DNA from: a virus
IMG/VR virus record: IMGVR_UViG_3300032286_001304
Location: 1 to 64,000 of that record
Direction: 5' to 3' (one strand)
Length of the DNA: 64,000 nucleotides
Part shown: positions 21,915 through 45,562 of the stretch, piece after piece
Position numbering within the stretch: the stretch's first letter is position 1
How the letters are laid out: every line of letters starts with the position of its first letter
The notes under the pieces: model-generated
What the model was told of the DNA's origin: nothing
Database searches by the model: none
What the model saw: only the letters and a program-made list of their open reading frames with translations
Made by a program: the position numbers and the translations under genes

Positions 21915-22108
21915 AAGCCATCAAGAATTTCTCTTAGCGCATAAATTGCTTCTTTTGGTAAAACAATTTCTTGATCATCCTCGCCATGCCCTTGTGAGAT
22001 AGTTACCCAATCAGGATTTGATGGGCAAGTTTTTACAATAATATTCTCAGTGTATTCTTCACTATGCATAAGTGTGAATTGCTTAGTTATTTTTGGTTTC
22101 ATATTCAT
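21905..22108 (-). CDS. Hypothetical protein
   Basis: 67 aa ORF. Confidence 0.6.
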   Translation of the reverse strand: MNMKPKITKQFTLMHSEEYTENIIVKTCPSNPDWVTISQGHGEDDQEIVLPKEAIYALREILDGFCY

Positions 22109-24930: not shown

Positions 24931-25143
24931 TTATGCGTTAATTTTTCTTTCTCTAGCTTGTTTATACCCTTCCAGTCTAATTTTACGATCTAAAACTTCT
25001 CGCCATGCAAAATGAAAATGCGAGCCTAGAACTTTTAAATCCTGTTCTAAACGCTCATAAAATTGTAATAAAATATCTAACTCAAAATCGGTTATTGAGT
25101 CGCCTATTAAAAATTTTTCATTAATATCAGTTAATAGTTTCAT
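24931..25143 (-). CDS. Hypothetical protein
   Basis: 70 aa ORF, ATGA-coupled. Confidence 0.65.
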   Translation of the reverse strand: MKLLTDINEKFLIGDSITDFELDILLQFYERLEQDLKVLGSHFHFAWREVLDRKIRLEGYKQARERKINA

Positions 25144-25502
25144 TTTAATAATTCTTTATTTTCAAATATATTTCCAACTACTTCCGAATATTTACATCTA
25201 TCATAGAGAGCATCAAAATACTTAAATCCGTTCTCCGACGACTCCTTTGTATGATATGAAACTTGCCATTCTCCGTTTGTAAATTGATATACTTGTTTAT
25301 ACTTTCCACCGTTTGCGATAGGATCTAAAAGAATATCACCATCGTAAATTTCTTTTCCATTTTTATCTTTTAATCCGGTGAATTGTTGCGGTGGGCTAAC
25401 CGAGCCATAAATTCCATGCGGATACCCTTCGTAAATATCAAAATAAATAAATGCTTTATCTATAAAAACATAGATGCGAAACTTTAATTCTCTTTGTTGC
25501 AT
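25140..25502 (-). CDS. YopX family protein
   Basis: RELKFR...QFTGLKDKNGKEIYDGDIL...VVGNIFENKELL. Confidence 0.92.
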   Translation of the reverse strand: MQQRELKFRIYVFIDKAFIYFDIYEGYPHGIYGSVSPPQQFTGLKDKNGKEIYDGDILLDPIANGGKYKQVYQFTNGEWQVSYHTKESSENGFKYFDALYDRCKYSEVVGNIFENKELLK

Positions 25503-25514
25503 AACTACACATTA

Positions 25515-26057
25515 TCACTCTTTCTCTTTGAAGTCAAGGTAATTTTTCCAAGGCGCAACCATCTTCCAGTTACACGCTAATTGTTCATCCGCAATCTTAA
25601 CCATTAGCGGATTAGGTTTGGCAATATCTCTGCGCGATAAAACCAAACTTTTAGCATCCTGTTCATACCATTCGCCAAGTAAATAACATAAAATAATATA
25701 AGCTGCCGCTGTGCTACAGCTAATTCCGGCATAGCAACATACGGCTAGATTTATATTTTTACCCTTTTTAAGTAAACTTTCTATAACAACTCCGCTTTCA
25801 ATTATACTATTTATTAAATTAACATCCGGCATTTTATAACCAGTTTTTCTATGTGATTCTATAAATGTATCATGAACTTCGTGAGTTACAAAATACTTTA
25901 CATCACCCAGAATAGCACTAACATTATCGTATGTATATGGTTCTTTTTGGCCAGGATGATTAAATCCAATAAAATAGTTGATATTTTTATCTTTTATTTT
26001 TTCTAACTCATAGCGTCCACAGATATAAAATTTAAAATTAAAAGGAAGAATAGTCAT
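25515..26057 (-). CDS. Protein-tyrosine-phosphatase-like protein with degenerate P-loop
   Basis: VCCYAGISCSTAAA (canonical HCxAGISRS), PNPLMVKIAD. Confidence 0.75.
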   Translation of the reverse strand: MTILPFNFKFYICGRYELEKIKDKNINYFIGFNHPGQKEPYTYDNVSAILGDVKYFVTHEVHDTFIESHRKTGYKMPDVNLINSIIESGVVIESLLKKGKNINLAVCCYAGISCSTAAAYIILCYLLGEWYEQDAKSLVLSRRDIAKPNPLMVKIADEQLACNWKMVAPWKNYLDFKEKE

Positions 26058-26059
26058 GA

Positions 26060-26341
26060 TTATTCAGATATTTTTTTATTATGCAAATATTTATGTTTAT
26101 CCCAAAATTCTTTGCCGGTATAAAACTCATGCAATTTATTAACTTCCGGTGGAATAAAACTATCTAGAATTTTTCTATCAGATTCTTTTACAAGATAAGT
26201 ATCGCCAGTATTTAATTTTTCAATAATTGCACTAGTAATTCCCAACTGAGGTTGAATTTGTTTCGCGTGCCAGTATTCTTCTAGGATTACTAGTAAATTT
26301 GTAATAATGTGACGTTCTAATTGTGATAGTTCGATTTTCAT
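26060..26341 (-). CDS. Hypothetical protein
   Basis: 93 aa ORF. Confidence 0.7.
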   Translation of the reverse strand: MKIELSQLERHIITNLLVILEEYWHAKQIQPQLGITSAIIEKLNTGDTYLVKESDRKILDSFIPPEVNKLHEFYTGKEFWDKHKYLHNKKISE

Positions 26342-26357
26342 GAAAAATATATATAAA

Positions 26358-26423
26358 TTAATGATGATCTGTTATTTTAATATTCTTTTTATTCATGATT
26401 TGCTTGATTTTTGAGAAATCAAC
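26358..26423 (-). pseudogene. Orphaned 3' end (21 codons plus stop) of the phosphoesterase gene
   Basis: VDFSKIKQIMNKKNIKITDHH* aligns without gaps to VSLKEVKMHLNGRSLDLTDHH* of 27401-28054. Confidence 0.7.
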
Positions 26424-26431
26424 ATAATCAC

Positions 26432-26460
26432 ACTATACATAGCTCCACGCATATAGTCAA
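26432..26460 (-). promoter_or_regulatory. Sigma70-like promoter
   Basis: TTGACT-17-TATAGT. Confidence 0.75.
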
Positions 26461-26514
26461 GATTTTTATAAAAAATAAGTCAAAAAGCATAATTTTATGT
26501 GTAATACCATATAT

Positions 26515-27450
26515 ATGAAAAGACCCAAAACGACACAAGATCAGATAAAATTTATTCTAGAAAATTATCCAGATAATGGAGCTATTTTTTGCAGCGAAAA
26601 AACTGGAATTCCTATAAGAAGGGTAAAAAAAATTTGTTATAAAGCTGGAGTAAAATTAACCAAGGAATCTAGGATAAAAATTCAAAGAAAATTACTCAAC
26701 CTTGCGCATAAACAACGAGAAATAAACAAAAATAATTTTGACTTATACGATGTGAATCCAGGTTTATTTATAAATCCAACAACTCCAGAAGTTGCTTATA
26801 TTTTAGGCTTACTATGGGCAGATGGATACATTAGAGAGGTTGGGTCAATTGCGATTGAAGCTGTAAAAAGTGATATAGATATTTTTTATCCTATTTTTTT
26901 AAAAACTGGAAGTTGGCTAATAAATTATAGAAATCGTTCCAACAGAAAACCACAGGGAAGAATTCATAAAAATAATATAATTATTGGAAAATTTTTAATT
27001 GAAAACGATTACACTTCTAAATCCACTGCATCAGCTTGTAAAATTCTTTCTAAAATTCCAGAACATCTTAAACATTATTGGTTTAGAGGGTTATTTGATG
27101 GAGATGGGTGCTTTTATATCAATCAAAAACAAAATCTAATTCAATTATCTATCGCAAGCTCTTTTGAGCAAGATTGGGGGTTTTGTGAAAAAATTATGGA
27201 AAAATTAAATATTAAATATACAATTAAGAGAAGTCAGCAACTACAAAAAGGAAAAATAAATAAATTTTCTGTTATAAGAGTAACAAATAGGAAAGGTATA
27301 AAGATATTTGGAGATTATATTTATAACAATTACGAAAACGACAAAATTGGTTTGCCTAGAAAATATAATAAATTTAAAGAAATAAAACAAATGATAGGGA
27401 CTAGTGATGGTCTGTCAAGTCCAACGAGCGACCGTTTAAATGCATCTTAA
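26515..27450 (+). CDS. Free-standing LAGLIDADG homing endonuclease
   Basis: AYILGLLWADG and YWFRGLFDGDG; antisense to the operon; likely start MKRPK. Confidence 0.9.
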   Translation: MKRPKTTQDQIKFILENYPDNGAIFCSEKTGIPIRRVKKICYKAGVKLTKESRIKIQRKLLNLAHKQREINKNNFDLYDVNPGLFINPTTPEVAYILGLLWADGYIREVGSIAIEAVKSDIDIFYPIFLKTGSWLINYRNRSNRKPQGRIHKNNIIIGKFLIENDYTSKSTASACKILSKIPEHLKHYWFRGLFDGDGCFYINQKQNLIQLSIASSFEQDWGFCEKIMEKLNIKYTIKRSQQLQKGKINKFSVIRVTNRKGIKIFGDYIYNNYENDKIGLPRKYNKFKEIKQMIGTSDGLSSPTSDRLNAS

Positions 27451-28054
27451 CTTCTTTTAAGGAAACCGGCTCACCGAAAGACTCAACCCCTACATCTAAT
27501 CTAAAACCACGACCATTATTTTTATTTGTTAACTCGCAGTTTGAGTGGGTATGACCCGAAAGATGAATTGAATTTTTTGATTGATAATTATGTGAGATTA
27601 TCGGGTAGTGACAAAGCACTAGCATAGTAGAATTAATATTTACTTCTACATATTGTGGAAGAAAAACAATCTTTTTTCCCTTATGAATAAATGATAATGG
27701 GTAAACCTCATAATTTACATCACCAAATTGTTGTTTCAATTGGAAAAAATATGCCTGTCTTTGCCCGGAGGTGTGATTGCCCCAGAGTAGATGTAATTCT
27801 TTAAACTTTAATCTCTCAATTACTTTATAAAAATTTTCACCTGTGCCATCTGAAAATATAAAATCGCCAAGATGAAAAACGATTGATTCTTCATCGCATT
27901 TTGCGTTCCATCTTTCGATTAAAACTCTATTACTTTCCTCTATAGAGTTAAAACCCCTCCTTCCCCAGATAAATTCACGATCATGGGAGTGATGTAAGTC
28001 ACTTAAAAATAAAAACTTAGACTCATCACCGTTAAACTTTAATTCTTTAATCAT
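27401..28054 (-). CDS. Metallophosphoesterase (phage phosphoesterase type)
   Basis: SDLHHSH, HLGDF, GNH, CHYP, GHTH, DVGVE. Confidence 0.9.
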   Translation of the reverse strand: MIKELKFNGDESKFLFLSDLHHSHDREFIWGRRGFNSIEESNRVLIERWNAKCDEESIVFHLGDFIFSDGTGENFYKVIERLKFKELHLLWGNHTSGQRQAYFFQLKQQFGDVNYEVYPLSFIHKGKKIVFLPQYVEVNINSTMLVLCHYPIISHNYQSKNSIHLSGHTHSNCELTNKNNGRGFRLDVGVESFGEPVSLKEVKMHLNGRSLDLTDHH

Positions 28055-28055
28055 T

Positions 28056-28295
28056 TTAATTATTATCTAAGAATCTGATGGCATTACGGATATCCCAAGC
28101 TGAATGTAATGCTTCAAGCGACTTAGTAATAAGATCATCCTTAGTCATCTCAACGGTTTTCCCATGATTAGTTGTGAAGACTTTATATTGACCATGTTCA
28201 TCTTGTTCTACCCAGCCCTCATTATCCATATCCCATCCATCATGGAGAATACGAAAACGAAATACGGTTTTATTTTTATTATTATCCTCGCTCAT
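28056..28295 (-). CDS. Hypothetical protein
   Basis: Likely start MSEDNNK. Confidence 0.65.
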   Translation of the reverse strand: MSEDNNKNKTVFRFRILHDGWDMDNEGWVEQDEHGQYKVFTTNHGKTVEMTKDDLITKSLEALHSAWDIRNAIRFLDNN

Positions 28296-28740
28296 TCCAG
28301 TTAACATAAGTGATTTTGCCACCCTCGTCAAGCGGAATCGTGAAATTTTCGTGTTGGCGTTTGATTACGTCGATTGGAACCTTTCTTGCGCGTTTTTCAT
28401 TATTTAAAATACATTGTTCAAGAGGTGTCTTAAAAACAACCCACTCTTTATTGTAATTAAATGCGGTTGCAAGACGATTCCAAATCAAACGATTCTTTTT
28501 ATTATAATTAGTATTATCAATAATCAAATTATTTCCTAATGACATCAAATATGACGCCATGTGCTCTAAAGTTTGAAATACTTGGTAATTTTTATCTTGA
28601 TTAGACTCATCACCAGTCATTATCAAACGCATCTTATCTGCATTTAGATAAATGTATTGTGGATTATCTTGTAAAAATTTCTTAGCCCAAGTGCTTTTAC
28701 CTGCACCAGAAATACCCACTAAAAGAATTATATTAGACAT
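28282..28740 (-). CDS. Polynucleotide kinase-like protein, kinase domain only (AAA_33)
   Basis: GISGAGKSTWA, ADKMR, IIDNTN, lid NEKRARKVP. Confidence 0.85.
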   Translation of the reverse strand: MSNIILLVGISGAGKSTWAKKFLQDNPQYIYLNADKMRLIMTGDESNQDKNYQVFQTLEHMASYLMSLGNNLIIDNTNYNKKNRLIWNRLATAFNYNKEWVVFKTPLEQCILNNEKRARKVPIDVIKRQHENFTIPLDEGGKITYVNWNERG

Positions 28741-28799
28741 AGATTTTTAGTTTGAATTTATAAATAATGATTTTTAGTGTAATACAATATACATCCATC

Positions 28800-29795
28800 A
28801 TGAAAAAATTAAGCAAAAATATAAAAGCTGAAGAAATCGAATACCTAAAAAGTAATTATGGAAAAATATTTGGGAGCGAAATTTGCAAACAATTAAAATG
28901 GTCTTCATCAAAACTTGAAAGGGCTACGAGAGCACTTGGGCTAAAGAGTAAGTTGCAAAAAAGAAAAAATAATGCAAACATAGAACTAATTTCAAAATTA
29001 GAAGATCCAGAAATACTTTACATCTTGGGGTATATTTGGGCTGACGGATATATACAGAGAAAAAAGAAAATTAAAAATAATAAAAAAATAGATAACGATT
29101 TTTTATTTCAAATGGCAAAACTAACAATTGTTAGCGAAGATTTTAAAGATATAGAAAATTATTTTAGTAAATTTGGAAAATATTCAATAAAGCACGAAAA
29201 AAGAGGAGATTTTAAGCCGACTTCTACTTGGTTTCTATGCGATACTACGTTTTGTGAATGGTTATGTAAATTCAATTATCATGAAAAATCATTAAAGGGG
29301 CCAGAAAAAATATTAAATGCTATCCCAGAAAATCTTCGCCATTACTGGTGGAGAGGATATTTTGATGGTGATGGTCATATTATATTGGCTACCAATTTTA
29401 GATCTTCCGTTTCGATTTCTGCTAATTTTGATTATAACTGGAGTTTTTTAAATTTGTTCTTGAATGGTATTGATTTTAAAATTAATAAAATAACAAATAA
29501 AAAAGGTCACAAACACTCTATAGCTTCTTGTAATTCTTTTAAATCAAAAAAATTTTTAGACTATATTTACCAAAATGTAGAAAAAGATAATATAGGACTT
29601 AAAAGAAAACGAGAAAGGTATTTTTTGTCTAAGCAATATATTTTTAAAGATAAAAAAAATAAAAATAAATATGTATATTATGTAGAAAGGAGAAATAAAT
29701 GGTCACTTTCTATTAAAAAACTTGGTGTCCAAATTTTATTTGAAACAGAAGCAGAGGCCATAAAGAAAAGAGACGAAATTATAAATAATCTTTAA
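28800..29795 (+). CDS. Free-standing LAGLIDADG homing endonuclease with AP2-like C-terminus
   Basis: YILGYIWADG, YWWRGYFDGDG; tail KYVYY...KW...FETEAEAIKKR; ORF track starts at 28767. Confidence 0.9.
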   Translation: MKKLSKNIKAEEIEYLKSNYGKIFGSEICKQLKWSSSKLERATRALGLKSKLQKRKNNANIELISKLEDPEILYILGYIWADGYIQRKKKIKNNKKIDNDFLFQMAKLTIVSEDFKDIENYFSKFGKYSIKHEKRGDFKPTSTWFLCDTTFCEWLCKFNYHEKSLKGPEKILNAIPENLRHYWWRGYFDGDGHIILATNFRSSVSISANFDYNWSFLNLFLNGIDFKINKITNKKGHKHSIASCNSFKSKKFLDYIYQNVEKDNIGLKRKRERYFLSKQYIFKDKKNKNKYVYYVERRNKWSLSIKKLGVQILFETEAEAIKKRDEIINNL

Positions 29796-30747
29796 GTTTG
29801 ACATAAGACGAAAGAAGATCTTGATCTACCATAGAAAATAATCTTTCATAAATTGGACGAAAAACTCTTCCATCAATATCTGGTTCATTGATTAACTCAG
29901 AAATTTGTCTATGAATTTCTCTATCCAAATCACCTTCAATTTTAAATCCGCGTAGACCAATTTCTGCATAATCATAACCATCACTCCAGTCATTTCTATT
30001 TTGTTGTAAATAATGCGCGAGATACAAATATTTATCTTTTGAAAGAATCGCTTCAGTCATCTCATGAACATTAGGCATTCCATTTGGAAAAGTCAAGTCA
30101 TATTTCTTAATTAATTCAAGAAATAACTTAGTCTTTTCCGCTTCTTTCTTTTTCTTTTCCTCTTCTAATTCCTTTGCTCGTTCAGCCGCTTGACGCTTTT
30201 GCACCTGCTCTTCAACCTTTCTTTTGAACCCTGACCAGTCGGGCAGAGAAGGAGCGTAAACGCGACATTTTGATTTTAATTCGGTGACAAATTCGCAATC
30301 CATCCAATCAGGAATGGTTTTCCGCGATTTAGGATTTTTACAACGAGTTTCAATCCCCATTAGTTTGATCAAATCAATTAAACCATTGAACGAGGCAAGA
30401 TTATTCTTTGCGATTTCTAAATTTTCAGCATAGATCGCCTTATCTTTTTCCCAAATTTCATCAATAAGTTCAATTTTATCCACAAATTGATATGAGTCAT
30501 AAACTCCTTGCGATGCTTCGCGTAACTTTTCTTCTTTACGAATTCCCCAAATCGAGGTAGATTCATATTGGTATTCAAATTGGTAGGAGTAATAAAGATA
30601 AGATTTATATGGAATAATTTTCCAATCTTTTTGCGCTGCCGCTTTATATTTTTCCACTTCGTTAGCGGATTCAGTTATCGCGTCAAGCAAATAAGAAACT
30701 GCTAACTTTCCCTTATAGGAAAGTTTTTCATCATCGTATTGTTTCAT
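29779..30747 (-). CDS. Hypothetical protein
   Basis: 322 aa ORF with coiled-coil centre. Confidence 0.8.
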   Translation of the reverse strand: MKQYDDEKLSYKGKLAVSYLLDAITESANEVEKYKAAAQKDWKIIPYKSYLYYSYQFEYQYESTSIWGIRKEEKLREASQGVYDSYQFVDKIELIDEIWEKDKAIYAENLEIAKNNLASFNGLIDLIKLMGIETRCKNPKSRKTIPDWMDCEFVTELKSKCRVYAPSLPDWSGFKRKVEEQVQKRQAAERAKELEEEKKKKEAEKTKLFLELIKKYDLTFPNGMPNVHEMTEAILSKDKYLYLAHYLQQNRNDWSDGYDYAEIGLRGFKIEGDLDREIHRQISELINEPDIDGRVFRPIYERLFSMVDQDLLSSYVKLKDYL

Positions 30748-30750
30748 TTT

Positions 30751-31590
30751 TTATTTATTTTGTTCCGCTACTGATTCTTGCGTTTCAATATCCACTTCCC
30801 CTCTATCGTGTTCGGCAGATTCTTGGCTTAAAAAGGCCAGACTTTTTAATTTATATACATCAGCATAATCATTAAATTTACGGACTACAACACCTTCTCT
30901 TGGAACTTTATTGACACATAATGGACAATCCATTTCTGTATATTTCGCAATTAAATGATTTAGCAGTTCTTCACGCCAAATATCTAAATCCCTATCATCC
31001 TTTGATTCAAGCCACTTAGTAGGCGCAACTAAATCTTTCGCATAACCAATATAATGATATGGAACTGTCTTTAGATTGTATTTCTTGCAATAAAGAGCAA
31101 TTTGCTGTTCGGTAAATTCAAAAACTTCACCCGATGGATTTGTATAGGTTATGCGATAAATAGCATAGTCATGTTGACCAGTTTTTGTGCCATAATCAAA
31201 ATCCTTTTGAATCCACTTGCAATTAGGAAGTTGCCCATAAATCTCTACATAAAAACTCATTCCATCTTTTAGGAATGGATTAAGTTCTTTGGCAACCAAG
31301 CCCCAAATATCTACATCATAGAAAGATTCTGATTTTTTATCAGCATAAGCGTTTTTAATTACTTTACGTGAACTCCATAGATAATCATAATTAGTATCTA
31401 CGATATTCACACCTAATTTCTTTAGAATCTTCTCGTAAAAATTCAATGATTTTTTACATAGAACTTTAGAGAAAACCCCGCTAGTATTATGAATTAGAAT
31501 TCCGTTAGCATAGAAATTACCAGTTGAACTTACGGTTAAGTCATAGCGATCATTTCGCTTATCCAACTTTTTAATTGATTTTATTTTCAT
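30751..31590 (-). CDS. C-intein (35 aa) fused to the C-terminal half of an RNA ligase
   Basis: MKIKSIKK...YDLTV...NFYANGILIHN|TSG; ligase motifs SRK, VEIYG, EGVVVR, KLKS. Confidence 0.92.
   Translation of the reverse strand: MKIKSIKKLDKRNDRYDLTVSSTGNFYANGILIHNTSGVFSKVLCKKSLNFYEKILKKLGVNIVDTNYDYLWSSRKVIKNAYADKKSESFYDVDIWGLVAKELNPFLKDGMSFYVEIYGQLPNCKWIQKDFDYGTKTGQHDYAIYRITYTNPSGEVFEFTEQQIALYCKKYNLKTVPYHYIGYAKDLVAPTKWLESKDDRDLDIWREELLNHLIAKYTEMDCPLCVNKVPREGVVVRKFNDYADVYKLKSLAFLSQESAEHDRGEVDIETQESVAEQNK
31486..31590 (-). mobile_element. Split intein, C-terminal part (IntC)
   Basis: Blocks F and G, terminal His-Asn, +1 Thr. Confidence 0.93.
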
Positions 31591-32557
31591 AAATTGATTT
31601 TATTTTTTCATATAGAAGTAAGAATTTATCTTCTCTGTTTAGTAGATGTAACTCTCTTTCCCATATCGTGACAACACTAAACCCTTTTTCTCTAGCTAAG
31701 TCAATTTTATTTTTATCTTTTTCCCAGATTTCTTTTGCAGTCTTGCGTGAAACTGGCATAATATCATTTTCTTTGTAAAGTTCAGGATCAGCGTGCCAAA
31801 TTGTTCCATTTATTTCGACTAAAACCTTTGAATTAGAGAGATAAATATCAAAAACATATCTTCCCATTTTAAATTGAGAAGAAAATGGAACTTGATTATC
31901 CACTAAGATTTCTTGTATATCTTTTTCCAAAGAACTTTCATATAGTTGAGTATTATTTTTTAATGACTGCTCGCTCCTTATTGTTTTTAATAGCCATTCC
32001 TCTTTTTCTTCTATTGTTTTGGATGACCATGCTATTTTTGAATCTATTGATCTTTTTTCTCTTATGGAGCATCCGAAATTCTTTAAAAATACAGACTCCA
32101 TTTTTTCAAGAAAATTCTTTATTTTAAATGGATTATCGACCCCATATTTCAAAATATAGGTTTTTTTTCTTTTTTCATTGAACTCTTTTACCTTAAAAGT
32201 TTGATCAACCCCATATCTTATAAGATTCGTTTTTTTTGATTTTTTAGCTGCCAAAACACATGCTTCACTATGCGTTCTTGGAATTATCCCAAAATAGTCT
32301 ATTAAAAATTTGGTAATTTTGTATGGAATTCCATATTTTTCTTTAAAATCCGGCAAACTATATAGTAGCGTTGAATAAGCATAATGAAAAATTTCTTTTG
32401 TCGCTATCTCTTTGAATGTCTCTAAATAAATCAAATATCTTAAAGACTTGGTATCCATCCCTCTTTTCTTTCTCTCCCATCTTAGATATGAAGCGAGTTG
32501 ATTGTTTTCATTGATAATTGTTTTTTTAAAGGGGCAAATATATTTTTGAGTATCCAT
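31571..32557 (-). CDS. Vsr/DUF559-like homing endonuclease between the intein halves
   Basis: SSLE...FDIY...VEINGTIWHAD...KD...VVTIWE; RYGVDQ/KYGVDNPF repeats; likely start MDTQK. Confidence 0.88.
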   Translation of the reverse strand: MDTQKYICPFKKTIINENNQLASYLRWERKKRGMDTKSLRYLIYLETFKEIATKEIFHYAYSTLLYSLPDFKEKYGIPYKITKFLIDYFGIIPRTHSEACVLAAKKSKKTNLIRYGVDQTFKVKEFNEKRKKTYILKYGVDNPFKIKNFLEKMESVFLKNFGCSIREKRSIDSKIAWSSKTIEEKEEWLLKTIRSEQSLKNNTQLYESSLEKDIQEILVDNQVPFSSQFKMGRYVFDIYLSNSKVLVEINGTIWHADPELYKENDIMPVSRKTAKEIWEKDKNKIDLAREKGFSVVTIWERELHLLNREDKFLLLYEKIKSIYENKIN

Positions 32558-32594
32558 ATACAATGGATTACACAAAAAATTCTAAAATTATACT

Positions 32595-32906
32595 TTATTC
32601 TGAATTTTTGCTGATAAGAACTTCGTCCCCATTTTTCAGAAGATCGGCTCTTCTGTAACATTTTAAATCCTTCATCCAAACTGGGTTATTACCCGTTATC
32701 TCTATCTTCCGCCCATCCTCTAACTCCATCTCATACCAATCATCACTATCTTTATAAAAATAATGATCTGTAATTTTGGCCCATACCTCTTTCTCAAGTT
32801 CTACGTCATAAGCCAAAACATTTCCAAATAATTTATTATCAACTACTTGGCCTATCGTGATATCCCCGTATTCAAGGGTTTTTATAATCGTTTCCTTATC
32901 CACACA
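32595..32906 (-). mobile_element. Split intein, N-terminal part (IntN, 103 aa)
   Basis: Cys1, block B region LEDGRKIEITGNNPVW, ending ADLLKNGDEVL. Confidence 0.92.
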
Positions 32907-33545
32907 ACCATGAAGTTTTTCAGAAATTGAGATAAAATCGTCTGGATGTAATGAAGATAAATTCTTTTTTAGCGGAGCCGTATCAATATGTAGTCTAAAT
33001 TGATTATCTACAAGTTTAGACTCTCTCTTTACTTTTCCTTTTTTGTTTTTAGAATTATTTTCTATATTTTGGGCGCGACGTAATGCATCATAATTGATAT
33101 ATTTATCGCAAATAAATGTATCTCCATAATGACTAAATTCAGTTCCTACCTCAAAATCTCCTATTGAAGCCTTTATTTTCTTGGAGGATAACCAATCAAC
33201 AATGGATTGAATTGGAACAATATAACCTTCAGAAAAGATTCCGCGAAGTTTGGTTGTTTTAACTCTTGATACGGATGGGAAAAATCCTTTTATGCTTTTA
33301 TCCGCATTTAATTCGGATTTGGAATAAGAATTAGACCAACTTAGATATTCCGAGTTTAAACGAGATTCCAGAGGAAAATAAATATAAATATCATCGGTTT
33401 TTGCATTTAGTCCTGTGATTACGTTCTGCCCATCAATAAAGGCAATTTGCAAACTGTCAGCGGATGGATGCTTACGCAATTCACCCAACTTAACTACTTT
33501 AGCAAGATAGTTTTTATGTTCGGTTTGAATAGATAATTTGCTCAT
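32595..33545 (-). CDS. N-terminal half of a DRB0094/Rnl5-like RNA ligase fused to an N-intein
   Basis: OB-like N-terminus (HPSADSL...KLRGIFSEG), motif I EKLHG, then CVDKETII intein block A. Confidence 0.92.
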   Translation of the reverse strand: MSKLSIQTEHKNYLAKVVKLGELRKHPSADSLQIAFIDGQNVITGLNAKTDDIYIYFPLESRLNSEYLSWSNSYSKSELNADKSIKGFFPSVSRVKTTKLRGIFSEGYIVPIQSIVDWLSSKKIKASIGDFEVGTEFSHYGDTFICDKYINYDALRRAQNIENNSKNKKGKVKRESKLVDNQFRLHIDTAPLKKNLSSLHPDDFISISEKLHGCVDKETIIKTLEYGDITIGQVVDNKLFGNVLAYDVELEKEVWAKITDHYFYKDSDDWYEMELEDGRKIEITGNNPVWMKDLKCYRRADLLKNGDEVLISKNSE

Positions 33546-42554: not shown

Positions 42555-42803
42555 TTATTTTTTGGATTTATGAATCAAACATCCTTCACACGGAACCAAA
42601 TATCCCATTTCTCTTCCTTGTATTGTATCTTCACGATATATATTCAGTCCAGTTGCCGAACAACACTCCTGCGTCCCAAAATGTTTAGTGCGTAAAAATA
42701 TACATATTTTCCCTTTGTTCCAATCAATCGCACAAGTTGGTTGTCCAAATGGAGTGTAAAAAGCTTTTAATTTTACATTAATTAGTTTTTCTTGTTTTTG
42801 CAT
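42555..42803 (-). CDS. Cys-rich hypothetical protein
   Basis: 82 aa ORF. Confidence 0.65.
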   Translation of the reverse strand: MQKQEKLINVKLKAFYTPFGQPTCAIDWNKGKICIFLRTKHFGTQECCSATGLNIYREDTIQGREMGYLVPCEGCLIHKSKK

Positions 42804-42960
42804 GTTTTATGATTATCTTATCAGTATCTTTTATTGCATTACCAGCTAATGCTCTAATGACAGACTCGGCTCCTTTGAATGCATATTCCCTTGTCAATTC
42901 GGGAACAGTATAAATAAATGTTTTAGTCCCGTTCCTATGTCTAATGACTTTAAGTGGCAT
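42778..42960 (-). CDS. Hypothetical protein
   Basis: 60 aa ORF. Confidence 0.5.
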   Translation of the reverse strand: MPLKVIRHRNGTKTFIYTVPELTREYAFKGAESVIRALAGNAIKDTDKIIIKHAKTRKTN

Positions 42961-45562
42961 TTTCTAGCTCCTTTCTGACCACACTTGCTTTCAATACGGT
43001 CGGAACCTCTTGTTCGACAATTTCTTTAACGAAATATATCTCATCTGTTTCACTAGTTACTTTTTTGGATAGGTGTATCACGGCGATTGAGTCTTCCTTC
43101 AAATTAACGAGTTCGTTCAGCAAGTCAAGCTGGAATAGCATCACAACCAAAGAATCTGTGTCATCTTTTATTGTGTATCTGACATAATCTTTTTTATTCT
43201 TAGAAATTCTTTTTTCTATTTCTTTTATTTGACAAATACATTTATAATCTCCTTGTGGCAGAGCTTTTAATGTTTTTAAATCATGCAATCCGATTATATG
43301 TTTACTATAAATAGATTTTAGCGAACCAGAATAAGAAAATCCAACATATTCATTTTCAGCAATCCATTTTGTAAGTTCTTCAAATCTTGAATTTCTAATA
43401 TATTTTTGCCAAAATGGAATATAATTCTTTTTTATTGTATCTCTTCTTGATTCTTTTATAAAAGGTTTTCCTTTTAAGTCTTTTAAATCTTCAACACAAG
43501 CCTTTATACAAGCCTCTAGGTTATAATTATATTTTTCACCAATGCTATGAATGATTGGCTTTTCCTTTGGAGTTAAAAGTTTATATAATTCAAGTTGAGC
43601 AATTAATTTATTTCTAGTGCTATCTTTGTTATATTCATCAAAGCAACCAGACATAATTAGGGAAGACGCCAAATTAATTGGAATTCCTGCTTCTGTTATT
43701 CCAGAAAATAAAGAGAATTTATTTTCAACAGCAATTTTAAATTCATGGATTTTATCAATTGCTTTTCCAGCAACACCCTTTACATTTGAAAGACCAATTC
43801 TGATTGCCCCATTTTCAATCACATGGTCATCTTTTGAGCAAGAAAGAGATGGAGGTAGTAATTTTATTCCTCTATCATCCATTTCCTTTTTTATTCTTGA
43901 TACATTTATAATTCTATCTTTTGGAGAATCATAACGAGTCATCTTCAAGCACGCCCAATAAAACTCGACTGGATATTTTATCTTTAACCATATCGTTTGC
44001 GCTGTAATCATCCCATACGAGATGGCGTGACATTTCGCAAATTGATACCCACCAGACTCTTCCGCTATTTTTAGAAGAAGATCTACAACAGTTTTTTCTA
44101 TACCATTCTTTTCGCAAATTTCTTCAATTTCTTTTTTTACTTTTGGAATCTCATCAATTTTCTTTTTACCAAGAGTTCTTCTAGCCATTTCAGCTTTATT
44201 TGGGTCCATTCCTACATTAATCAACATCTTTAGATATTGTTCTTGAAACAAACAAATTCCGCCAGTTGGTTTAAGAACATCATCAATTACAGGATGAATA
44301 GTTTCATAAACTGAATTATGAACATAATTTAAATATTTCTTTAATCCGCTTATAGCACCGGGACGACTAATAGCAAGAGCATCTGCAATTTGAATAAAAT
44401 TCTTTGGTTTTATTTGAATTGCAATTCTTCCTTGAGCCTCAGACTCAAATTGGAATATTCCATACATATCTTTGGCATCTTGAAGCCATTGATAAATAAT
44501 ATTATCTTCGCAATTTATATCTTCGACCTTGATTCCAGCCGCTTTACAACAATCATAAACGACAGATGCGGTTTTTAGTCCTAGTTCGTCAAATTTAAGA
44601 GTAAGCTCTTGTGCGGTATACATATCACAAGAATTTGAAATGGCATATTCCCCTGTTTCTTCACCTTTTGTAAGCTGAAGGGGCATTAAATTAGCTATTT
44701 CATCATGTGAAATCAAAACAGCGGAAGCATGGCATCCGACTGATTTTTTAAGACCTCTTAACTTTAATGACATCCTGATTACTTCAGAATGATTCTTAGC
44801 CCATTGTTTTAACTTTACATTTTCTTTATTTTTGTCATTTGAAAGGGCATCACCTAAGTCTTCGACTATGCCGAATTGCTTATCGACGAGGTCGCTTACA
44901 TCATTTGCTTCGCTTTCAGAAGATTCCTCGTAACATTTTAAGACTTCTTTTAATAGAATCTTTGTAGTTAGGGAGCCAGTAGTTAGAAGTTTAGCCGTTC
45001 TATTTGGATATTTTTGATTTAGATATTCAATAACCTCACTTCTTCTGTAAAAACATAAATCTTGGTCAATATCGGGAGCAAGAGAACCGTCGATGTATTT
45101 TATTCCATCAATAAAACTTGTTTTTGCGCGGGCTGGATTTAGAAATCGGGTAAAGAAAAGTTCATTCTTAATTGAGTCAATCTTAGTAATTCCTACTAAA
45201 TAACAAACAATACTTGAAGCTACTGAACCACGACCTGGACCAGTTGGAATTTCATTTCTACGGCAAAAGTCACAAATATCCCAAACCATCAAGATGTAAT
45301 CAATAAATCCAAGAGTCTCAATAACATTTAACTCTTCTTTTATTTGATTGGCATACTTTTGATTTAGCGATTTATCTATTTTGCCAACTATTTTATCACG
45401 AAATCCCTTTCTGCATAGTTCGGTTAAAAACTCTTTATTAGAAACTGATTCTGGCAGACCAACATATTCGTATTGAATCTTTGAAGGTTTGAATTCTGGT
45501 AAACGAACTCCGTTAAAAAGAACAGGAATTTCGTATGAAGTAAATTTTTTGGAAAAAGACAT
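42950..45562 (-). CDS. dnaE: DNA polymerase III alpha-like catalytic subunit lacking the PHP domain
   Basis: GPGRGS, PDIDQD, HASAV, KFDELGL, GIFQFES, FAKCHA.SY, GLSNVKGV, C-terminal OB fold. Confidence 0.95.
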   Translation of the reverse strand: MSFSKKFTSYEIPVLFNGVRLPEFKPSKIQYEYVGLPESVSNKEFLTELCRKGFRDKIVGKIDKSLNQKYANQIKEELNVIETLGFIDYILMVWDICDFCRRNEIPTGPGRGSVASSIVCYLVGITKIDSIKNELFFTRFLNPARAKTSFIDGIKYIDGSLAPDIDQDLCFYRRSEVIEYLNQKYPNRTAKLLTTGSLTTKILLKEVLKCYEESSESEANDVSDLVDKQFGIVEDLGDALSNDKNKENVKLKQWAKNHSEVIRMSLKLRGLKKSVGCHASAVLISHDEIANLMPLQLTKGEETGEYAISNSCDMYTAQELTLKFDELGLKTASVVYDCCKAAGIKVEDINCEDNIIYQWLQDAKDMYGIFQFESEAQGRIAIQIKPKNFIQIADALAISRPGAISGLKKYLNYVHNSVYETIHPVIDDVLKPTGGICLFQEQYLKMLINVGMDPNKAEMARRTLGKKKIDEIPKVKKEIEEICEKNGIEKTVVDLLLKIAEESGGYQFAKCHAISYGMITAQTIWLKIKYPVEFYWACLKMTRYDSPKDRIINVSRIKKEMDDRGIKLLPPSLSCSKDDHVIENGAIRIGLSNVKGVAGKAIDKIHEFKIAVENKFSLFSGITEAGIPINLASSLIMSGCFDEYNKDSTRNKLIAQLELYKLLTPKEKPIIHSIGEKYNYNLEACIKACVEDLKDLKGKPFIKESRRDTIKKNYIPFWQKYIRNSRFEELTKWIAENEYVGFSYSGSLKSIYSKHIIGLHDLKTLKALPQGDYKCICQIKEIEKRISKNKKDYVRYTIKDDTDSLVVMLFQLDLLNELVNLKEDSIAVIHLSKKVTSETDEIYFVKEIVEQEVPTVLKASVVRKELENAT

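Follow-up and report, generated by a model that had tools for sequence, protein, structure and literature searches.

Analysis of a 64,000-nucleotide (nt) stretch of viral DNA (hereafter, the window; positions 1 to 64,000 of the IMG/VR record IMGVR_UViG_3300032286_001304) revealed a predicted LAGLIDADG homing endonuclease gene, HEG1, that lies between an intact metallophosphoesterase (PE) gene and a stranded piece resembling a second PE C-terminus. The explanation that we favor, with a probability of about 0.55, is that HEG1 arrived together with the entire PE gene linked to it, and that a divergent resident PE gene was displaced, except for its last 21 codons. On the best reading of the sequences, HEG1 and a PE allele would move jointly, as one block of two convergent genes with overlapping 3' ends. 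The features involved are the following (lengths of proteins in amino acids, aa):

26358-26423, minus strand: the relic ("tail B"), a PE C-terminus of the other subtype, ..IKxIMNKKxI..DHH, with 21 codons and a stop
26424-26496, no strand: 73-nt spacer separating the relic from the HEG1 start; the incoming block probably has its 5' end here
26497-27450, plus strand: HEG1, predicted free-standing two-motif LAGLIDADG homing endonuclease gene, 317 aa (Pfam LAGLIDADG_3, PHROG 4645)
27401-28054, minus strand: PE gene, 217 aa, intact (Pfam Metallophos_2, PHROG 547)
27404-27466, minus strand: tail A, the last 21 PE codons, of the mainstream type ..EVKxHLxxRxLDxxDHH

A second PE C-terminus beyond the endonuclease gene

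The PE protein ends in VSLKEVKMHLNGRSLDLTDHH, with the stop codon at 27401. On the far side of HEG1, the minus strand from 26423 to 26358 reads VDFSKIKQIMNKKNIKITDHH, followed by a stop; a stop in the same frame lies three codons upstream, a start codon is lacking, and these 66 nt are apparently untranslated, so that caution in annotation is required: the relic is not a gene. Both ends had been noticed in a model-made reading of the letters alone (hereafter, the original prediction), which described the PE 3' end as overlapping the antisense LAGLIDADG gene and the stranded piece as a same-strand, 21-residue PE-like end with diverged DNA. The overlap is present and amounts to 50 nt (27401-27450), and the two ends share 7 of 21 residues, with 7 further conservative replacements, and 30 of 66 nucleotides.

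The PE family ends in a near-invariant DHH preceded by a conserved 18-residue segment, and a tail matrix was built from 34 family tails, with the window's own tail left out. Among the 127,876 six-frame 21-mers of the window, the relic ranked second after the true tail, scoring 14.9 bits against 0.7 for the next candidate. Its best BLOSUM62 score to any family tail was 71, compared to 38 for the next match in the window. Across 135 related loci (~1 Mb), the best false match scored 49, and none of these loci except the window contained a second PE tail. Even when DHH was removed, the relic remained the top non-self BLOSUM match (49 versus 41). These scans show that the relic is a genuine PE-family C-terminus next to a LAGLIDADG gene, as originally proposed. 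A chance resemblance in AT-rich intergenic DNA can practically be dismissed: such a coincidence would fit the sharing of just 7 residues with tail A, and the relic does fall outside the eight best matches of the family matrix once DHH is omitted, but the scores given above are far from those of false matches, and the stop, strand and position of the relic are all correct.

The gene pair

The PE gene passes the Pfam Metallophos_2 cut-off narrowly (27.3 bits, cut-off 27) and matches PHROG 547 with an E-value of 5e-31; in the family alignment, it has every family-invariant residue, including the His/Asp/Asn metal-binding columns. HEG1 (its start in the database gene call is 26515) scores 36.2 bits for LAGLIDADG_3 against a cut-off of 22.5, and its alignment with 22 relatives shows two motifs, invariant W-x-D-G and D-x-D-G blocks and a variable C-terminal extension, while the N-terminal region is helix-turn-helix-like. 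The gene is antisense between PE and a 93-aa gene. Since the conserved core of HEG1 stops near 27393, its last ~19 codons represent read-through over the antisense of tail A.

By its sequence, HEG1 is predicted to be a free-standing homing endonuclease gene. An intron or an intein, whose absence the original prediction had already assumed, can be ruled out: there was no Rfam match at E ≤ 1 within 25000-31000, the PE length of 217 aa is that of orthologues lacking the endonuclease, and HEG1 is a separate antisense open reading frame (ORF).

Two subtypes of tails

Tail A is identical to the tails of its closest PE relatives (P0002-P0004) at 11-13 of 21 positions, and to those of P0014 and P0032 at up to 16 of 21, whereas the relic matches the same closest relatives at only 4-5 positions. 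The best matches of the relic among 120 homologues belong to a divergent subgroup with the signature ..IMxxKx.. (P0066, 12/21; P0056, 11/21). Thus, the expectation that C-termini of relatives free of the endonuclease would resemble the remnant was not borne out; it is the present tail that they resemble.

We simulated AT-biased, neutral drift starting from tail A, or from the tails of the endonuclease-free relatives L001 and L055, to the observed DNA divergence (20,000 runs). An open frame, the stop and DHH were all retained in at most 0.03% of the runs, and the family score never exceeded 51, compared to 71 for the relic. Decay of tail A is thus rejected as the source of the relic, which is instead the fairly fresh end of a different PE allele. 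Because the relic belongs to another tail subtype, the exchange probably involved more than 21 codons.

This result bears directly on the original prediction that the element invaded only the last ~21 codons, i.e., that the endonuclease and a short tail were inserted at PE codon -21, leaving a native body with a foreign tail A. The layout of an intact tail, an endonuclease and a stranded tail is that of mitochondrial mobile ORFs (PMC3630166), the overlap of HEG1 with tail A provides tight linkage, and the greater similarity of tail A to P0014 and P0032 than to the nearest relatives of the body gives a weak hint. Nevertheless, we consider a tail-only replacement distinctly unlikely. It requires an ancestral gene with a mainstream body and a relic-type tail, and neither the 35 aligned relatives nor those of the 120 homologues with the best tail matches include such a chimera; the tails of endonuclease-free orthologues resemble tail A rather than the relic; and a mobile block shared by two other loci, L156 and L158 (described below), contains the whole PE gene. 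No significant break in identity was detected at codon -21 either: the PE is evenly ~70% identical to L001, P0003 and P0004 along its length, and the values of 52-62% for tail A are not significantly lower (p 0.08-0.46). We also considered a change in GC content at tail A as a sign of foreign origin and discarded it, as conserved Gly, Val, Glu and Pro codons explain it.

Relatives without the endonuclease

Comparison with related loci involved four neighboring genes of the window:

25515-26057, minus strand: dual-specificity-phosphatase-like gene, 180 aa; its homologue lies downstream of PE in G001 (directly) and in L057 (with one small ORF between)
26060-26341, minus strand: 93-aa gene of no family, starting 16 nt past the relic stop; 72% identical to the G001 gene
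28056-28331, minus strand: ORF91, a small gene ending 1 nt before the PE start; 56% identical to G001, absent from L001
28282-28740, minus strand: polynucleotide-kinase-like P-loop kinase, the syntenic anchor (L001 70%, G001 72%)

Several relatives have the PE gene without an endonuclease. In L001, a 191-kb viral contig, the kinase and PE are each 70% identical to those of the window, and the next gene begins 4 nt past the PE stop; in L055, PE is also 70% identical and the distance to the next gene is 12 nt; in L057 and L058, PE is followed by one small ORF and then by the phosphatase-like gene. All of these have a single PE end, the next gene being within a few nucleotides of the PE stop, in agreement with the original prediction, and no endonuclease-free relative among the 135 related loci carries both ends. 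The presence of endonucleases at syntenic sites is polymorphic in both directions: L001 and L055 lack one at PE, and the window has an empty site for a homologue found in G001 (see below). In the phage record collection, no DNA-level relative of the window was found; at the protein level, the best among the matches listed were ~30-32% identical, and none reached 60%. A scan of genome contigs found nothing.

G001 (a 172-kb contig with loci L136 and L137) has the same flanks (kinase 72%, ORF91 56%, 93-aa gene 72% and phosphatase-like gene 60% identical to the window) and a PE that is only ~40% identical. The tail of this PE, ..KKFMNKKAYKSEGHH, matches the relic at 9 of 21 positions and tail A at 6 of 21. 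The kinases of L001 and G001 are 87% identical but their PEs are only 40% identical, which indicates that PE allele types have been swapped among these phages. Relative to G001 and L001, ORF91 is the other edge of the divergent block. In addition, P0003 with P0123 and P0015 with P0160 are two pairs of a PE and a related endonuclease; the longest contig has an equal length for both members of a pair, and each pair may thus lie on one shared contig.

Duplicated gene ends across the endonuclease family

Seven HEG1 homologues were found in the window's genome record plus three relatives, and 80 more related endonuclease loci (L147-L226) were added to the analysis. For each locus, 400 nt on either side of the endonuclease were compared in all same-strand frames. 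Mismatched flanks served as the null model (mean best 18-mer score 27.5; 99th percentile 40), and distinct endonucleases were counted as clusters at 95% identity, of which there were 61. Duplicated gene ends across the endonuclease were detected in 7 or 8 of these 61 distinct loci, compared to ~0.5 expected, and four of them are at PE genes:

L158: flank score 97; PE gene
L167: flank score 76; 527-aa gene of no family
L206: flank score 66; PE gene
L174/175: flank score 48; PE gene, with the endonuclease in the same orientation as its host gene
Window: flank score 46; PE gene
L200/201: flank score 44; duplicated 5' end
L146: flank score 43; second example, in G001
L169: flank score 43; low-complexity match, discounted

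The host genes of L158, L206 and L174 are calcineurin-like phosphoesterases. Moreover, a PE gene abuts the endonuclease in 27 of 85 loci (~21 of the 61 distinct ones), in all four relative arrangements, and 3' overlaps of 8-127 nt are seen in all but one of the 11 convergent pairs. For example, in L013 a HEG1 homologue is antisense just after a divergent-type PE, with an 8-nt overlap. These associations suggest that the HEG1 clade is specialized on the calcineurin-like phosphoesterase family. A quick tree of the endonucleases was poorly resolved and was set aside; in it, the PE-adjacent members clustered marginally.

The scars in the other phosphoesterase loci allow a closer look at the relationship between the two ends. 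The L158 relic (2295-2432) comprises 46 codons, of which 35 encode residues identical to those of the intact tail, at a DNA identity of 77%; 12 codons differ synonymously and 11 non-synonymously. In the L206 relic, 9 of 14 conserved codons are synonymous variants. Differences of this largely synonymous kind indicate that both copies were functional, in different genomes, while they diverged. L156 and L158 have nothing in common but the endonuclease (79% aa identity) and the whole PE (67%), both flanks being unrelated in tblastx comparisons. The shared block starts ~50 nt upstream of the endonuclease ATG, and the 5' end of the L158 relic lies within ~10 nt of this left edge. By this comparison, the mobile unit in L156 and L158 appears to be the endonuclease plus a complete PE gene. 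For the window, what is visible is the edges of the block relative to G001 and L001; inheritance of a block across contexts is seen for L156 and L158.

A mirror image of the 3' scars was observed in L200/L201 (2094-2147 and 3150-3203), where the endonuclease is preceded by a stranded N-terminal piece and followed by the intact gene.

The recurrence of such scars is also relevant to an explanation that does not involve the endonuclease, namely that a tandem PE paralogue was lost through an unrelated deletion which left the relic. The difference in subtype between the relic and the present gene would be expected in this case. We nevertheless regard this scenario as very unlikely, as a second PE gene or tail is present in none of the 135 related loci, only one PE is found in the genome record, and end duplications recur exactly flanking related endonucleases, which argues for a causal link.

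A second example with its empty site

The window itself provides the uninterrupted counterpart of one of these scars:

22083-22108, minus strand: empty site, at which a 143-aa gene (22514->22083) and a 67-aa gene (22108->21905) overlap directly

There is neither an endonuclease nor a relic between these genes in the window. In the orthologous region of G001 (L146), an antisense HEG1 homologue overlaps the 3' end of the 144-aa gene, and a 28-codon C-terminal relic of that gene (1344-1430; ..SVPSNVILPLQF..) is located on the far side of the endonuclease. This relic overlaps the start of the next 67-aa gene, in the same native overlap as at the empty site of the window, and it is the best non-orthologous match to either tail in 3.3 million six-frame positions.

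G001, the record that contains L136, has three HEG1 homologues in total (42785-43441, 71628-72416 and 77010-77828). One HEG1 homologue of G001 (L141) is located between helicase-like and primase-like genes, on the same strand.

A model of block entry and its alternatives

In the scenario that we favor, the HEG1 enzyme would have cleaved the 3' part of a divergent PE gene resident in an ancestor of this phage or in a close relative. Repair would then have copied the donor's whole PE allele together with the endonuclease gene (approximately 26424-28055), the linked allele presumably being immune to cutting. For lack of homology on the far side, the join there would have been illegitimate, and the last 21 codons and the stop of the resident gene would have survived as an untranslated relic just before the next gene. 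The incoming block would thus be bounded by the ORF91 stop and the relic.

Several observations weigh against this scenario. The identity between the window and L001 is the same for PE and the kinase (70%). Equal values would also be expected if the present PE had been inherited vertically, and the relic would then have to come from elsewhere. Identity to the nearest relatives is slightly lower for tail A (52-62%) than for the body (70-72%), and tail A is 76% identical to P0014 and P0032; tail A could therefore have its own history, a weak hint without correction for multiple comparisons (p 0.02-0.08). L013 and most other PE-adjacent loci have no relic. Finally, the order of events in this genome rests on the analogy with L156/L158 and on parsimony.

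Another possibility is that the displacement took place in another lineage and the relic, never a part of the PE of this phage, arrived together with the endonuclease block, through illegitimate recombination or through co-conversion by way of a homologous downstream gene. Homing is known to co-convert both flanks, in T4 as well as in organelles; the present PE looks vertically related to L001, and the relics of the window and G001 are further from the tail of the endonuclease-free orthologue than the intact tails are. On the other hand, the L158 relic adjoins the shared block without being part of it, L156 has no such relic, and the relics occupy their native positions relative to the next gene. 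An imported relic therefore seems unlikely to us.

Beyond the window, a broader interpretation of the joint entry of HEG1 and PE can be offered tentatively, with the odds somewhat against it: this phage LAGLIDADG clade may form stable selfish two-gene modules with PE alleles and drive the cut-resistant allele through populations. If so, resident alleles of an RNA-repair or phosphatase gene would be replaced wholesale, and datable scars would mark the sites of cleavage or insertion.

Comparison with known mobile elements

Mobile endonuclease ORFs (mORFs) with a duplicated host C-terminus have been described in fungal mitochondria, in atp6 of Allomyces macrogynus, atp6, atp9, cox2 and nad3 of Glomus sp., atp9 of Rhizopus, and cob and atp6 of Endoconidiophora (PMC3630166, PMC6279837), and displaced-end relics are well documented there. 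The layout is matched: in mORFs, a LAGLIDADG or GIY-YIG ORF is found at the 3' end of the host gene, a working in-frame C-terminus precedes it, and an untranslated stranded copy with diverged DNA remains ~1 kb downstream. An important distinction is that the stranded copy of mORFs matches close relatives, and the in-frame copy is foreign, whereas in the window it is the in-frame tail, along with the gene as a whole, that matches relatives free of the endonuclease, the stranded copy being of another subtype. In addition, the endonuclease gene of the window runs antisense to the host gene and into its 3' end, a whole gene seems to have been exchanged, and the carrier is a phage rather than an organelle.

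Intronless homing of the T4 type, with localized marker exclusion, is known for the free-standing endonucleases SegF (gene 56), SegG (gene 32) and MobE (nrdB), enzymes of this type being GIY-YIG or HNH. The window resembles this system in that a free-standing endonuclease gene lies beside a conserved gene, relatives without the endonuclease are otherwise syntenic, and the endonuclease and the neighboring allele would be inherited together. It differs in the enzyme, a LAGLIDADG protein with an N-terminal helix-turn-helix-like region, and in the divergence of the donor and recipient alleles (~40% aa identity), which is too high for homologous exchange within the gene. We know of no description of T4 intronless homing that includes a stranded relic of the displaced allele.

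Nuclease genes have also been found at boundaries of genetic exchange in ICP1 and other phages (PMC10448857). The common point is that homing endonuclease genes border recombinant blocks and are clustered next to conserved genes; however, the genes involved in those phages are mainly T5orf172, HNH and GIY-YIG. A term search of the text of PMC10448857 did not turn up any remnants or pseudogenes of displaced gene ends, and no precedent for stranded gene ends in phages was found in the searchable literature.

By analogy, the locus can be viewed as a phage counterpart of both fungal mitochondrial mobile ORFs and T4 intronless homing, and as an example of endonuclease-driven allele turnover in uncultured phages, in which endonuclease elements appear to carry a gene copy along when they move. 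Displaced-end relics would then serve as footprints, which mark the entry point of the endonuclease block and indicate that a whole allele, and not just the selfish gene, was exchanged. The scars also provide a set of natural junctions, and recognition sites of uncharacterized LAGLIDADG enzymes could be guessed from them.

Promoter-like sites and other features near the locus

According to the original prediction, a TTGACT-17-TATAGT promoter between the endonuclease and the remnant restores downstream transcription. The site does exist (26460->26432, minus strand, within the 73-nt spacer), and a weaker promoter-like site is found in front of HEG1 (26465-26493, plus strand). The significance of the TTGACT-17-TATAGT site as a promoter was set aside, since promoter-like sites occur at chance frequency (22 found versus 19.5 expected); the whole window contains 44 of them, without strand bias and with 9 in intergenic regions. 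In G001, the distance from the relic to the endonuclease start is just 13 nt, so that an outward promoter is not a general property of this layout. No terminators were predicted, so read-through from upstream genes is possible.

The best sigma-70-like match of the region, TTGACA-16-TATCAT (27391-27418, minus strand; 11 of 12 positions), falls within the tail A codons and is directed into the antisense of HEG1; it is probably fortuitous. Nothing convincing was found in the search for microhomology or direct repeats at the junctions.

A second LAGLIDADG gene of the window (28767-29795), 30% identical to HEG1, is antisense between the kinase start and a 322-aa ORF (30747->29779), whose end it overlaps by 17 nt. 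No relic was detected beside it; the best flank score, 28, is within the null range. L001 has neither this gene nor the 322-aa ORF, and its 472-aa gene abuts the kinase. In the window, the homologue of that 472-aa gene is interrupted (30721-33545): tblastx matches cover 33545->32907 and 31491->30721, with ~1.4 kb of extra DNA between them.

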